The notes under the pieces: model-generated
Database searches by the model: none
What the model saw: the letters and a program-made list of their open reading frames with translations, nothing else
What the model was told of the DNA's origin: nothing
Part shown: positions 56,874 to 61,192 of the stretch, in pieces
Layout: each line of letters begins with the position of its first letter
How positions within the stretch are numbered: position 1 is the first letter of the stretch
Assembly (NCBI GenBank): GCA_016707895.1
Contig: JADJGV010000002.1
Span: 719,695-783,694 of the forward strand
Direction of reading: 5' to 3'
DNA from: Myxococcales bacterium
GTDB taxonomy: Bacteria > Myxococcota_A > Polyangia > Haliangiales > Haliangiaceae
DNA: 64,000 nt
Translations under genes and position numbers: made by a program

Positions 56874-57245
56874 GTGTCGATCCGCTCGCTCCGCATCGTC
56901 GGCCGCGCCGTCGCGCTGGTGACGATGCTGGCGGTCGCGGTGGTGACGTTGCCGACCGCGACCGCGGCGGTGGTGACCTGCTGCTGCGGCGATCACGACG
57001 CGCACCACGACTGCGGGTGCGTCGACTGCCCGGCCGGTGACGGCCACCGCAGCGGCGACGGCTCGCCTTCCATGAAGAGCTGTCAGAGCCGGTCGGCCGA
57101 GGTGACGCTCGCGTCGAGCGAGCTGGAGCTCGCGCCGCCGGACGTGGCGGTCCGCGTGCTGCCCTGCCTGACGCCCGCGCTCGCGGCGCCGGTGCTGGAC
57201 GACCGCGCGGCCGATCCGCCGCCGAGCCCGCCGCCGCGAGGGTAG
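56874..57245 (+). CDS. small secreted Cys/His-rich putative metal-binding protein
   Basis: Signal/TM segment (AVALVTMLAVAVVTLPTATAAVV), then CCCGDHDAHHDCGCVDCPAGDGH. GTG start. First gene of the MbnP/MbnH-like cluster. Confidence 0.4.
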   Translation: MSIRSLRIVGRAVALVTMLAVAVVTLPTATAAVVTCCCGDHDAHHDCGCVDCPAGDGHRSGDGSPSMKSCQSRSAEVTLASSELELAPPDVAVRVLPCLTPALAAPVLDDRAADPPPSPPPRG

Positions 57246-57448
57246 CGCGTCGGTCGCGTCGGCCCGTGTCCGCCCGTCGATCGGGCGCGACGCGGCGTCG
57301 GCGTGTCCGCCTTCGCGCTCACCTGTCTCGGTCGTCGCGATCCGCGGTCTGCGGGCGCGGCTCGACCGAGGCGCGTCGCCATGCTCGCCGCACCCGCGGC
57401 CGGCGGCGGCGTCCACCGCTCGCACCCAGCTCGCTCGGAGTCACGATC

Positions 57449-58357
57449 ATGTCTACACGTCTTGCTGCGGCGCTCGTCGCGTCGCTCGCCTCGTTCACCA
57501 CCCTCGCCGCCTGCGGCGATGATCACGATCACGATCACGTCCACGTCGACGCCGCCCCCGCCGACGCGGTGGTGGTCGACGCCCCGACCACCCAGGCGGT
57601 GTCGATCCGCTTCGCCGCCAAGGTCGGCGGCGCGCCCTTCGCCTGCGGCCAGACCTACGCCGGCATCGGCACCAGCGCCGCCAGCTACGTCGGCGCCGAC
57701 TTCCGGTTCTTCGTCTCGGCGCCGGCGCTGACCCCGATCGGCGGTGGTCCGCCGGTGCCGGTCGCGCTCGCGGTCAACGCCAACCAGACCGCCGACGGCG
57801 TCGCGTTGCTCGACTTCGAGACCAACACCGCGAACTGCCAGACCGGCGACACCGCGACCTACACCACGCTGACCGGCACGGTGCCGAGCGGCAGCTACGA
57901 CGGCGTCGCGTTCACGCTCGGCATCCCCGCCGATCGCAACCACCTCGATCCGGCGCTGGCGACGGCGCCGTACAACGCGCCCGGCATGCTGTGGGCGTGG
58001 CAGAGCGGCTACAAGTTCGTCAAGATCGACGGCGTCGTCGGCGGCGCCGGCTTCAACCTCCACGTGGGCTCGACCGGTTGTCCCGGCACCGATCCGCAGC
58101 AGCCGCCGACCGGCGCGTGCGTGAACCCGAACCGCGCGGCGATCAGCCTGGCCGGCTTCGACCCGGCCACCGACACGATCGTCGCCGACATCGCGCCGGT
58201 GCTGGCCGGCGAGGACGTCGCGGTCAACACCGCGATGACCGCGCCCGGGTGCATGTCGTTCCCCGGCGACCCCGAGTGCGACACGATCTTCCCCAAGCTC
58301 GGGCTGCCGTACGGCGCCGCCGCGGCTGGGACCCAGCTGCTGTTCACGGTGCCGTGA
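57449..58357 (+). CDS. MbnP-like copper-binding lipoprotein (metallo-mystery-pair partner)
   Basis: Lipobox LAACGDD. (DH)3 His-rich linker. Multi-Cys secreted domain. Immediately followed, with overlapping stop/start, by a di-heme peroxidase-like gene, as in the MbnP–MbnH arrangement. Confidence 0.5.
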   Translation: MSTRLAAALVASLASFTTLAACGDDHDHDHVHVDAAPADAVVVDAPTTQAVSIRFAAKVGGAPFACGQTYAGIGTSAASYVGADFRFFVSAPALTPIGGGPPVPVALAVNANQTADGVALLDFETNTANCQTGDTATYTTLTGTVPSGSYDGVAFTLGIPADRNHLDPALATAPYNAPGMLWAWQSGYKFVKIDGVVGGAGFNLHVGSTGCPGTDPQQPPTGACVNPNRAAISLAGFDPATDTIVADIAPVLAGEDVAVNTAMTAPGCMSFPGDPECDTIFPKLGLPYGAAAAGTQLLFTVP

Positions 58358-59547
58358 TGCGCGCGCTCCTGCTCGCGCTCGGCGTCGCGGCGCTCGCCGG
58401 GTGTGGCGACGACGGGATCGCCGCGCTCGATGGCGGCGTCACCGACGCCGCGCTCGACGCCCCCGTCGACGCCGCGCCGCCGAGCTGGCCGTTCGCGCTG
58501 CCGGCCAACTTCCCCGTGCCGCGGCTGCCGCCCGATCAGCGGCTCACCGCCGAGCTGGCCGAGCTCGGCCGCTACCTGTTCTACGACGTGCGGCTGTCGG
58601 CCAACGGCACCCAGGCGTGCGGCAGCTGCCACCTGCAGGCGCGGGCGTTCGCCGATGGCAAGGTCACGCCGAGCGGGTCGACCGGGACCGTGCTGCGCCG
58701 CAACGCCATGGGCCTGACCAACGTCGCCTACAACCCGTCGTACACGTGGGCCAGCCCGGTGACGCGCACGCTCGAGGCCCAGGCGCTGATCCCGATGTTC
58801 GGCAAGCACCCGGTCGAGCTGGGCATCTCGGGGCACGAGCCGGAGATCCTGGCGCGGCTGGCCGCGGATTCCGGATACGTCGCGCGGTTCGCCGCGGCGT
58901 TCCCCGGCGAGGTCAGCCCGATCGGCTTCGGCAACGTCGCGCGGGCGCTGGCGGCGTTCCAGCGCCGGCTGATCTCCGGCGGCGCGCGCGTCGATCGCTA
59001 CCGGCAGGGTGACCTCACGGCGCTCACCGACGCCGAGGTGCGCGGCCAGGCGCTGTTCTTCAGCGAGGTGCTGGAGTGTCACCACTGCCACGGCGGCTTC
59101 AACTTCACGATCGCGACCGACCACGCCGGGCTGCCGAGCCAGGAGCCGCACTTCTTCAACACCGGGCTCTACGCCAGCTACCCGGCCGACGATCCGGGGC
59201 TGTGGGAGTTCACGTTCCTCGAGGCCGATCGCGGCCGGTTCCGCCCGCCGACCTTGCGCAACGTCGCGCTGACCGCGCCGTACATGCACGACGGCAGCGT
59301 CGCCACGCTCGAGGAGGTGGTCGACATCTACGCCCGCGGCGGGCGGCTGATCGTCGACGGTCCGAACGCCGGCGACGGGCGGACCAACCCCAACAAGAGC
59401 CCGCTGGTCAACGGCTTCACCATCACCGCCACCGAGCGCGCCGACCTGCTCGCGTTCCTGCGCGCGCTCACCGACGACGCCTTCGTCGCCGATCCGACGC
59501 TGGCCGACCCGTTCGCGCCGCCGCCGGCGGCCGCGGAGGGGCCGTGA
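58357..59547 (+). CDS. di-heme cytochrome c peroxidase family protein (MbnH-like)
   Basis: Two CxxCH motifs (CGSCH, CHHCH). Lipobox LAGCGDD. CCP/MauG-family length and spacing. Confidence 0.75.
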   Translation: MRALLLALGVAALAGCGDDGIAALDGGVTDAALDAPVDAAPPSWPFALPANFPVPRLPPDQRLTAELAELGRYLFYDVRLSANGTQACGSCHLQARAFADGKVTPSGSTGTVLRRNAMGLTNVAYNPSYTWASPVTRTLEAQALIPMFGKHPVELGISGHEPEILARLAADSGYVARFAAAFPGEVSPIGFGNVARALAAFQRRLISGGARVDRYRQGDLTALTDAEVRGQALFFSEVLECHHCHGGFNFTIATDHAGLPSQEPHFFNTGLYASYPADDPGLWEFTFLEADRGRFRPPTLRNVALTAPYMHDGSVATLEEVVDIYARGGRLIVDGPNAGDGRTNPNKSPLVNGFTITATERADLLAFLRALTDDAFVADPTLADPFAPPPAAAEGP

Positions 59548-60371: not shown

Positions 60372-60401
60372 TCACCCCGGCCTCGCCGGAAGGAACCCCG
60401 C

Positions 60402-60824
60402 ATGCGTCCGATCTGCCTCTGCCTCTGCCTCCTGCTCGCCGCGCTCGCGTGCGGCGACGCCGCCGAGCCCGCCACCATCGACGCCGCCGGCGTCGACGCC
60501 GCGCCGCGCGAGACCGTGACCGCCGACCGCACGCTGGGGGTCGGCGAGATCGCCGAGGGCATCCTCACCGGCGGGCCCGCCGATCGCGCCGATCTGCACC
60601 TCGCGGCGGCGACCGCGGCGATCGACTGGAACATCCACGGCCACGCCGGCAGCGGCACCCAGACCGTCGTCGAGGGGCTCGCGCAGCTGACGGTCGACTA
60701 CGGGTTCGTCCCGTCGGCGCAAGGCGAGTGGTTCGTGCTGGTGCGCAACGGCGGCACCGCGCCGCTGGCGGTGACGGTGCGGCTCGAGCTGCACGGCGCG
60801 ATGACGTGGAGCGGCTGGCAGTGA
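60402..60824 (+). CDS. small lipoprotein (hypothetical)
   Basis: MRPICLCLCLLLAALACGD lipobox. 140 aa. Confidence 0.45.
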   Translation: MRPICLCLCLLLAALACGDAAEPATIDAAGVDAAPRETVTADRTLGVGEIAEGILTGGPADRADLHLAAATAAIDWNIHGHAGSGTQTVVEGLAQLTVDYGFVPSAQGEWFVLVRNGGTAPLAVTVRLELHGAMTWSGWQ

Positions 60825-61192
60825 GCCGCGCGGCGGCGGTCGTGCTGGTGGCGCTCGCGGCGTGCGGCGAGTCGGCGCTGTTCGGGCCGCCGACCGAGGC
60901 GACGTGTCCGCCGGGGTCGACCTCGACCTGGGACAGCTTCGGCCAGGCGTTCATGACCCGCTACTGCACCCGTTGCCACGCCCGCGCGCTGACCGGCGCC
61001 GATCGCCACGGCGCGCCGAGCTTTCACGACTTCGACACGGTGTTCGGCGTCCGCGCCGTGCGGGCGCACATCGACGAGACCTCGGCGGCCGGCCCGGCGG
61101 CGGTCAACACGTCGATGCCACCCGACGGTGAACGTCCGTCGATGGCCGAGCGGCTGCAGCTCGGCGAGTGGCTCGCCTGCCAGGCGCCCTGA
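60820..61192 (+). CDS. small mono-heme c-type cytochrome-like lipoprotein
   Basis: GTG start overlapping the upstream stop. Lipobox LVALAACGES. Single CxxCH (YCTRCH). Confidence 0.45.

Follow-up and report, generated by a model that had tools for sequence, protein, structure and literature searches.

How does an MbnP/MbnH pair obtain copper when the genes around it encode neither a TonB-dependent transporter nor the enzymes of methanobactin synthesis? MbnP and MbnH are widespread outside methanotrophs, and both their role there and the route of their copper supply are unsettled. This question is raised by a locus of six genes, all on the + strand, at positions 56874-61192 of a 64,000-nucleotide stretch (hereafter the window; positions 719,695 to 783,694 of contig JADJGV010000002.1, assembly GCA_016707895.1, Myxococcales bacterium), where mbnP and mbnH stand among four accessory genes in the order g1-mbnP-mbnH-g4-g5-g6. 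On balance we favour the explanation that the six genes form an operon by which an uncultured, Kofleriaceae-like myxobacterium handles copper in its cell envelope, and in which g4 would take the place of the transporter MbnT. Together with its relatives the locus amounts to a natural experiment, since the four accessory genes lie either beside mbnPH or beside the gene of a YcnI-like protein, with no TonB-dependent transporter nearby. These loci point to a testable copper route across the myxobacterial outer membrane and place four annotation-free protein families in a copper context. Such a route, once confirmed, would enlarge the copper-trafficking repertoire by a small metal channel of a new type and by a new cysteine-rich metal carrier, and would offer a simpler, methanobactin-free system for the study of MbnP function.

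The MbnP/MbnH pair

Judged from profile and structure-based alignments, the second and third genes almost certainly encode a true MbnP/MbnH pair. The product of the second gene (57449..58357, +, 302 amino acids), an MbnP-family copper-binding lipoprotein, reached 234.9 bits on the MbnP model TIGR04052 (cutoff 140) and 131.2 bits on PF20243 (cutoff 27), and its residues 47-294 aligned with the MbnP structure PDB 7L6G (E = 4.8e-31). In this alignment GMLWAWQ of the window protein lies opposite GMAWNWQ and LHVGSTGC opposite VHVGSTGC, six cysteines are aligned and the M-x-W-x-W pattern is kept. The protein carries a LAAC lipobox, a DDHDHDHVH linker, the WxW motif in the form WAW and the HVGSTGC motif; the (DH)3 stretch after the lipid cysteine is present here and unconserved among orthologues. 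The product of the third gene (58357..59547, +, 396 amino acids), an MbnH-family di-heme MauG-like enzyme, scored 440.5 bits on TIGR04039 (cutoff 362.85) as against 150.6 bits on the MauG model TIGR03791 (cutoff 443.85). It also matched PF03150 (146.8 bits) and aligned over residues 40-392 with the MbnH structure PDB 6E1C (E = 1.5e-106). The protein has two heme motifs, CGSCH and CHHCH, as well as an AGC lipobox, and the mbnP stop and the mbnH start overlap by one nucleotide (TGATG). A first-pass annotation made from the letters of the window had proposed a multi-cysteine, (DH)3-bearing MbnP lipoprotein translationally coupled to a di-heme MbnH. This central interpretation stands, because the hidden Markov model scores place the first protein within the MbnP family and the second with MbnH and not with MauG.

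In the characterized system, MbnH converts a tryptophan of the MbnP WxW motif to kynurenine, by which the copper site of MbnP is formed (PMC11951088). A bis-Fe(IV) intermediate of the MbnH type is known as a spectroscopic property (PMC11892367). The same kynurenine and copper-site mechanism is expected, by analogy, for the window pair. Since MbnPH pairs outside methanotrophs have been recognised from the TIGRFAM definitions onwards (PMC3621798), the pair described here adds a new member to a family already known. Its closest known counterpart is MbnP/MbnH of Methylosinus trichosporium OB3b (7L6G and 6E1C, formerly called the "metallo-mystery pair"), with which it shares passage of the family cutoffs, adjacent and coupled genes, the WxW, M-x-W-x-W and HVGSTGC motifs, the six cysteines and both heme motifs. 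The window pair differs in that methanobactin genes, MbnT and the MbnI/R regulators are missing nearby (in the annotation of ±10 kb and among the larger open reading frames), in that both proteins have lipoprotein signal peptides, and in that the pair is embedded among four uncharacterised genes.

The accessory genes as a separable module

The four accessory genes very probably form a functionally linked module, as far as can be read from their distribution in related loci (labelled L007-L032; near-identical loci were grouped by judgement for the counts). At least four other genomes (L014, L015/L007, L016 and L031) have the complete set g1-mbnP-mbnH-g4-g5-g6, L031 with the order g5-g6-g4. The set persists in spite of differing flanking genes and of a g4 identity as low as about 50%. 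In L020, L021 and L029/L030, by contrast, a DUF1775 (YcnI-like) protein (PF07987, 59.8 bits; mature N-terminus His) is encoded amid g1, g4, g5 and g6, which are grouped there in different orders, and no mbnPH genes were found within the 14-17 kb fetched around these loci. Since the same four genes stand beside the DUF1775 protein elsewhere, the module is separable from MbnPH. Moreover, gene order is shuffled (g4-g5-g6, g5-g6-g4, g4-DUF1775-x-g5-g6) while membership is kept, which argues for selection on co-location rather than for inherited synteny. At least one of g1, g5 and g6 lies beside g4 in 12 of about 17 distinct g4 loci, and all three do so in 8.

Partial sets were also found. L026 and L027 have g4 with g6; in L025 and L028, mbnPH occurs together with a two-component system and g5-g6, and g4 may be present or missing; L017 has g5-g4 together with a weakly YtkA-like lipoprotein; and in L032, g1 is accompanied by a Cys-tailed barrel-like protein other than g4.

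The alternative partners of the module, MbnPH and DUF1775, belong to different Pfam families and are unrelated in sequence, and both are copper-binding. Experiments have established DUF1775/YcnI as a Cu(II)-binding domain (PMC8424229), which holds Cu(II) via an N-terminal histidine brace and has been linked to copper uptake in Bacillus (PMC8424229, PMC12154828). In L020, L021 and L029, the DUF1775 protein with its N-terminal histidine holds the position of MbnPH. The likeness to Bacillus subtilis YcnI has its limits, since the window contains no DUF1775 protein and the Bacillus partner YcnJ, a CopCD-type importer (PMC8424229, PMC12154828), is absent from the myxobacterial loci.

The accessory set consists of four lineage-specific families without Pfam models, confined to one myxobacterial lineage, and all data on it are from uncultured organisms. 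None of g1, g4, g5 and g6 reached any Pfam or NCBIfam threshold, in line with the earlier description of these genes as uncharacterised. No description of the set was found in the literature, where neighbourhood analyses in the primary MbnPH papers may mention similar genes.

Further genes were observed in the related loci. A family of small Cys-rich lipoproteins lies near g4 in L021 (8829-9110) and L027 (7492-7839), with the pattern (F/Y)DNLxxCxxDHI...AIAxCxID and no Pfam match. Directly upstream of g4, a multi-pass membrane protein of 241 amino acids is encoded in L017 (5279-6004), L022 (7243-7968) and L019 (1-726). It is found in loci without MbnPH and DUF1775, its L017 copy has no Pfam match, and it may be an alternative inner-membrane partner. 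In L028 (2995-5061, - strand) MbnP and MbnH are called as one fused product of 688 amino acids, beside which stands a histidine kinase/response regulator pair, divergent from g5-g6. L025 contains two pairs of MbnP-like protein and di-heme peroxidase back to back (2782-6874). The two-component system of the L025/L028 lineage is a candidate regulator of the module.

Gene calls and junctions

All six open reading frames can be taken as real genes, because the GC content at third codon positions is high (0.93-0.98 in a window of about 74% GC) in exactly the proposed frames, and because public gene calls agree: on CAXWNE010000013.1 (NCBI GCA_964269055.1) six identical products of 123, 302, 396, 275, 140 and 123 amino acids are annotated. 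Proteins identical or near-identical to the window products come from metagenome-assembled genomes (MAGs) labelled Myxococcales. The first-pass annotation had described six co-directional genes with overlapping or near-overlapping starts. This is correct for mbnP-mbnH-g4, where mbnH and g4 overlap by 4 nucleotides (GTGA), and for g5-g6, which overlap likewise by 4 nucleotides (GTGA); g4 and g5 are separated by 30 nucleotides with the ribosome-binding site GGAAGGAA. It does not apply to g1, which is separated from mbnP by 203 nucleotides. The sequence motifs that had been quoted are all present, namely CCCGDHDAHHDCGCVDCP in g1, the lipobox and DDHDHDH in MbnP, CGSCH/CHHCH in MbnH and a single CTRCH in g6.

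Predicted properties of the g4 barrel

The g4 product (59544..60371, +, 275 amino acids) had been described earlier as a secreted protein. It is a predicted outer-membrane beta-barrel of 12 strands. The AlphaFold2 model, built from a 17-sequence alignment, has a mean predicted local distance difference test score (pLDDT) of 77 and a predicted template modelling score of 0.71. The family comprises 20 clusters among 5.8 billion proteins, the named ones all from Myxococcales or Kofleriaceae MAGs, and 14 loci in GTDB species genomes, all from Kofleriaceae, Haliangiales or unclassified Myxococcota MAGs. A match to PF13557 (17.5 bits) stays below the gathering score of 22, and there is no other Pfam match; this weak match agrees with a barrel, as does the single NCBI label "transporter" in the family.

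In the family alignment an invariant A-x-A signal-peptidase site is followed by QHCH as the mature N-terminus. Two further segments are invariant, PTGDADAGRGMGHVM and H-x-x-H-x-H...WPLIDPM, and the C-terminus is aromatic. PTGDADAGRGMGHVM and HAAHAHGAxLWPLIDPM sit in the two longest loops of the model; assuming the standard topology of outer-membrane barrels, we infer that these His/Met segments occupy extracellular loops 3 and 4 and that the QHCH tail is periplasmic. In distant homologues QHCH is replaced by QHHHHHH, DHDHSHAHGGH, EDRHDVHDEHAGH or QLCH...HHDH. Because a His-rich or His/Cys-rich mature N-terminus is found in every g4 homologue, a predicted metal-binding tail appears to be a trait of the family.

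The predicted fold resembles FapF and the COG4313 channels and, less closely, PcoB, while a search of the g4 profile against solved structures in the PDB gave no match, including no PcoB chain. The copper channel PcoB is a barrel with a metal-binding N-terminal tail (PMC9210255), and g4, as modelled, would share with PcoB/CopB (PDB 7PGE) an outer-membrane barrel and a putative metal-binding tail at the N-terminus. However, g4 has no sequence similarity to these proteins and does not match PF05275, its tail is short and His/Cys-based (QHCH) whereas that of PcoB is long and Met/His-rich, and no PcoA, PcoC or PcoD partners are encoded at the window locus. With the COG4313/PF13557 channels (4RL8) and FapF (5O65) the likeness lies in the predicted 12-stranded fold; these channels are plugged by an N-terminal helix. 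The differences are the PF13557 score below gathering, the QHCH tail and family-conserved His/Met loop motifs of g4, and the contexts of the known members, which are phenol degradation (COG4313) and amyloid secretion (FapF). A porin-cytochrome electron conduit was considered as well and rejected, since a barrel of 12 strands is too small for a cytochrome to fit inside and g6 is a single-heme protein.

Predicted properties of g5 and g6

The g5 gene (60402..60824, +) encodes a lipoprotein of 140 amino acids that belongs to a family of 44 clusters and is modelled as a beta-sandwich (pLDDT 87.7) with generic structural neighbours only. Its signature DWNIHGH is near-invariant in the family. This recalls the methanotroph kynurenine-copper surface proteins MopE/CorA, which have the di-heme peroxidase partner CorB. 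The g5 motif is, however, W-x-x-H-x-H, as opposed to the MopE/CorA kynurenine site, which we take to be W-x-H, and g5 occurs also in loci where no MbnH was detected.

The last gene, g6 (60821..61192, +, 123 amino acids), encodes a lipoprotein of the single-heme c-type cytochrome kind, with a CTRCH heme motif, an SMPP axial-methionine motif and two further conserved cysteines. CxxCH and MPP are invariant in an alignment of ten homologues, and the Cytochrome_CBB3 score (19.6 bits) stays below the gathering score of 27. No other product of the cluster is as well conserved as g6, with 66-99% identity where g4 has 36-72%.

Predicted properties of g1 and of the g1-mbnP gap

The first gene of the locus, g1 (56874..57245, +), encodes an exported Cys/His-rich protein of 123 amino acids. 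It starts behind a strong ribosome-binding site (AAAAGGGGAGC), has a third-codon-position GC content of 0.95 and consists of an N-terminal signal or anchor, the cluster CCCGDHDAHHDCGCVDCP, a distal Cys70 and a C-terminal PPPSPPPR tail. A first search returned 8 clusters, and an exhaustive profile search extended the family to 82 (clusters formed at 50% identity; lengths of 78-191 amino acids, most about 105-160). The family signature is CCCGxH-x5-CxCxxC(P). C36, C37, C38, G39, H41, C47, C49, C52 and C70 are kept in 42 of 42 aligned members, nearly all of which have a proline after the last cysteine of the motif and most a PPxPPPR-like C-terminal tail. All members bearing names come from Kofleriaceae or Myxococcales MAGs. 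An earlier suggestion that g1 might be DUF2946-like found no support, since no Pfam family was matched even at E<=10, nor was any among the 42 relatives scanned. A bufferin-like or methanobactin-like modified peptide was also rejected, because no DUF692/MNIO or MbnB/C gene occurs among the scanned neighbours of the g1 loci (L020 and L021 covered in part).

In L032 (1080-2021) the g1 homologue is followed by a protein of 313 amino acids with a CAACSCGDP N-terminus and a KTPTG motif, which looks like a different small outer-membrane barrel. This arrangement suggests barrels with a Cys or His tail as the general partners of g1.

Translational coupling does not extend to g1 and mbnP, as the two are separated by 203 non-coding nucleotides (57246-57448) in which the third-codon-position GC signal collapses. 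The gap, counted with its hairpins from the g1 stop codon (57244..57448, +), contains a long GC-rich hairpin beginning at that stop codon, two more hairpins and then the mbnP ribosome-binding site (GGAG). Its predicted RNA fold has an energy of -123.9 kcal/mol (z = -3.1 against shuffled sequences). A hairpin directly after the g1 stop is also found in L014, L015 and L016, and a shorter one in L020, L021 and L031, most with weak z values. The coordinates are 57244-57320 in the window, 5628-5700 in L014, 5642-5746 in L016, 5619-5676 in L015, 6097-6126 in L020 and 6148-6172 in L021. The position thus recurs in most loci and the sequence is unconserved, with z ranging from -3.1 to about 0 in DNA of high GC content. 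In an alignment of four loci the gap is conserved among close relatives only, and a Rfam scan of 55500-61500 gave a chance-level match (E 0.42) and no riboswitch or known RNA. The hairpin could act as a leaky terminator or mRNA stabiliser that raises g1 above the downstream genes.

Transporter, methanobactin genes and promoters

Neither a TonB-dependent transporter nor methanobactin genes were found in the Pfam annotation of ±10 kb or among the 20 larger open reading frames of the window, the smaller ones of the upstream ~47 kb being scanned in part; the same holds for anything of the kind of an MbnA precursor or of MbnB/MbnC. This agrees with what had been noted from the sequence at the outset. 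Likewise, no TonB-dependent receptor was seen among the scanned genes beside any related locus examined. For isolated MbnPH pairs, a neighbouring TonB-dependent transporter has been described for methanotroph pairs only (PMC3621798). No consensus sigma-70 promoter was found at the operon, and a single terminator-like site is at chance level. Upstream of g1, a comparison of eight loci gave no 8-10-mer common to at least five of them, and loose TTGAC-like elements only.

Proposed function and alternative explanations

The module probably deals with copper, to judge by its gene neighbourhood and its His/Cys/Met-rich motifs. In the explanation that we favour, MbnH would, by homology, mature MbnP into a kynurenine-containing copper protein, and g4 might serve as a small passive outer-membrane copper channel that replaces the TonB-dependent MbnT, a role suggested by its context. 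The His/Met-rich surface loops and the QHCH tail of g4 might capture copper and pass it on, and the HxH lipoprotein g5 together with g1, whose seven cysteines probably bind Cu(I), might relay or buffer the metal. The cytochrome g6 might supply or remove electrons, either for the conversion between Cu(II) and Cu(I) or for oxygen activation by MbnH. The former role is favoured over that of an electron donor to MbnH, because g6 stays with g4/g5 where no MbnH was detected. As for the direction of transport, uptake through g4 is put forward tentatively, its chances falling a little short of even.

Several points weigh against this explanation. A TonB-dependent transporter as the usual neighbour of MbnPH is known from methanotroph pairs only (PMC3621798). 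Near the window operon, neither a metal-responsive regulator nor a matching operator was found, and g4 occurs without g1, g5 or g6 in 5 of the roughly 17 distinct g4 loci. The g4 loops with the conserved histidines are modelled at low confidence (residues 179-195, pLDDT <50). Furthermore, the link to copper is drawn from neighbourhood and from His/Cys/Met motifs, and such motifs could also bind zinc, nickel or iron. Finally, sequence does not reveal in which direction the metal is moved, and uptake and defence cannot be told apart on that basis; PcoB itself has been assigned roles in uptake and in efflux or defence (PMC9210255, PMC12509749).

A bolder version holds that g1, g4, g5 and g6 constitute a new TonB-independent outer-membrane copper relay, restricted to Haliangiales/Kofleriaceae and serving either MbnP or a YcnI-like protein, with g4, g1 and g6 as novel types. 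We consider this rather unlikely as a whole. If true, the relay would be a plug-in module for a copper protein of either the kynurenine type (MbnP, matured by MbnH) or the histidine-brace type (YcnI-like); g4 would be the first metal channel with a COG4313/FapF fold, g1 a new family of seven-cysteine Cu(I) carriers and g6 a dedicated envelope cupric reductase or oxidase.

The same genes might instead serve copper defence or sequestration, with g4 releasing or excluding copper in the manner of PcoB/CopB, g1 and g5 as buffers and MbnP as a periplasmic sink. Cys-rich exported proteins are typical Cu(I) buffers, and myxobacteria carry large copper-resistance inventories. Such a role is nevertheless unlikely, given that none of the loci examined has an adjacent gene for a multicopper oxidase, a CopA-type ATPase, a Cus pump or CopC/D, that the alternative partner YcnI has been connected with the uptake of copper in Bacillus (PMC8424229, PMC12154828) and that MbnPH has been described in a context of copper acquisition (PMC3621798).

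Less probable still is that g1, g4, g5 and g6 are not specific for copper, but have a function with another metal or in redox or thiol chemistry and lie beside MbnPH or DUF1775 through the synteny of their lineage. The lack of metal specificity in His/Cys/Met motifs would fit this, as would the loci in which g4 is alone or accompanied by g6 or g5 only; in addition, all data come from one bacterial lineage, so that shared ancestry inflates the apparent co-occurrence. On the other hand, lineage synteny is difficult to reconcile with a module whose order is shuffled between loci while its membership is kept and around which the flanking housekeeping genes vary, and both of its sequence-unrelated alternative partners bind copper. 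It is very improbable that the operon is a peroxide-detoxification unit in which MbnH works as a common periplasmic cytochrome c peroxidase, g6 donates the electrons and MbnP and the others are passengers. MbnH does belong to the bacterial di-heme peroxidase superfamily (PF03150), whose canonical members draw electrons from small c-type cytochromes. However, its score exceeds the cutoff of the MbnH equivalog model, its gene is translationally coupled to that of an MbnP whose WxW is intact, peroxidase activity is poor in MauG-type members (PMC11892367), and g6 stays with the module genes in L020, L021, L026, L027 and L029, where no MbnH was detected.

Neighbouring genes and other features of the window

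An FKBP/SlyD-like protein of 155 amino acids is encoded 72 nucleotides upstream of g1 (56334-56801, +; FKBP_C 19.9 bits, just below the cutoff). It is present with 88-97% identity in L014 and L007 and missing at that position in L016 and L031. On the other side, the phosphoenolpyruvate carboxylase gene ppc (61210-63918, +) starts 17 nucleotides past g6 on the same strand; it directly follows g6 in L014 too, and not in L016 or L007. Both genes were rejected as members of the module since L016 and L031 lack them at these places, and the FKBP/SlyD-like gene is probably a conserved neighbour outside it.

Two genes for sigma factors of the extracytoplasmic function (ECF) type lie at 46760-47582 and 19570-20775 (both +); one is followed by a small open reading frame for a possible anti-sigma factor and one has a DUF6596 domain, and neither could be linked to the operon. 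At 38651-39441 (+), some 18 kb before the operon, a COX3-family protein (PF00510, 46.5 bits) is encoded, followed by a hydrophobic open reading frame of 70 amino acids. The two are possible accessory subunits of a heme-copper oxidase, and so potential copper clients. Finally, two leucyl-tRNA-synthetase-like genes are arranged in tandem on the - strand. The second (30236-32779) is complete, with an editing domain (PF13603, 209 bits), while the first (27649-30210) has the same N-terminal motif, no editing-domain match and weak catalytic-domain matches, and may be a degenerate or neofunctionalised paralogue.

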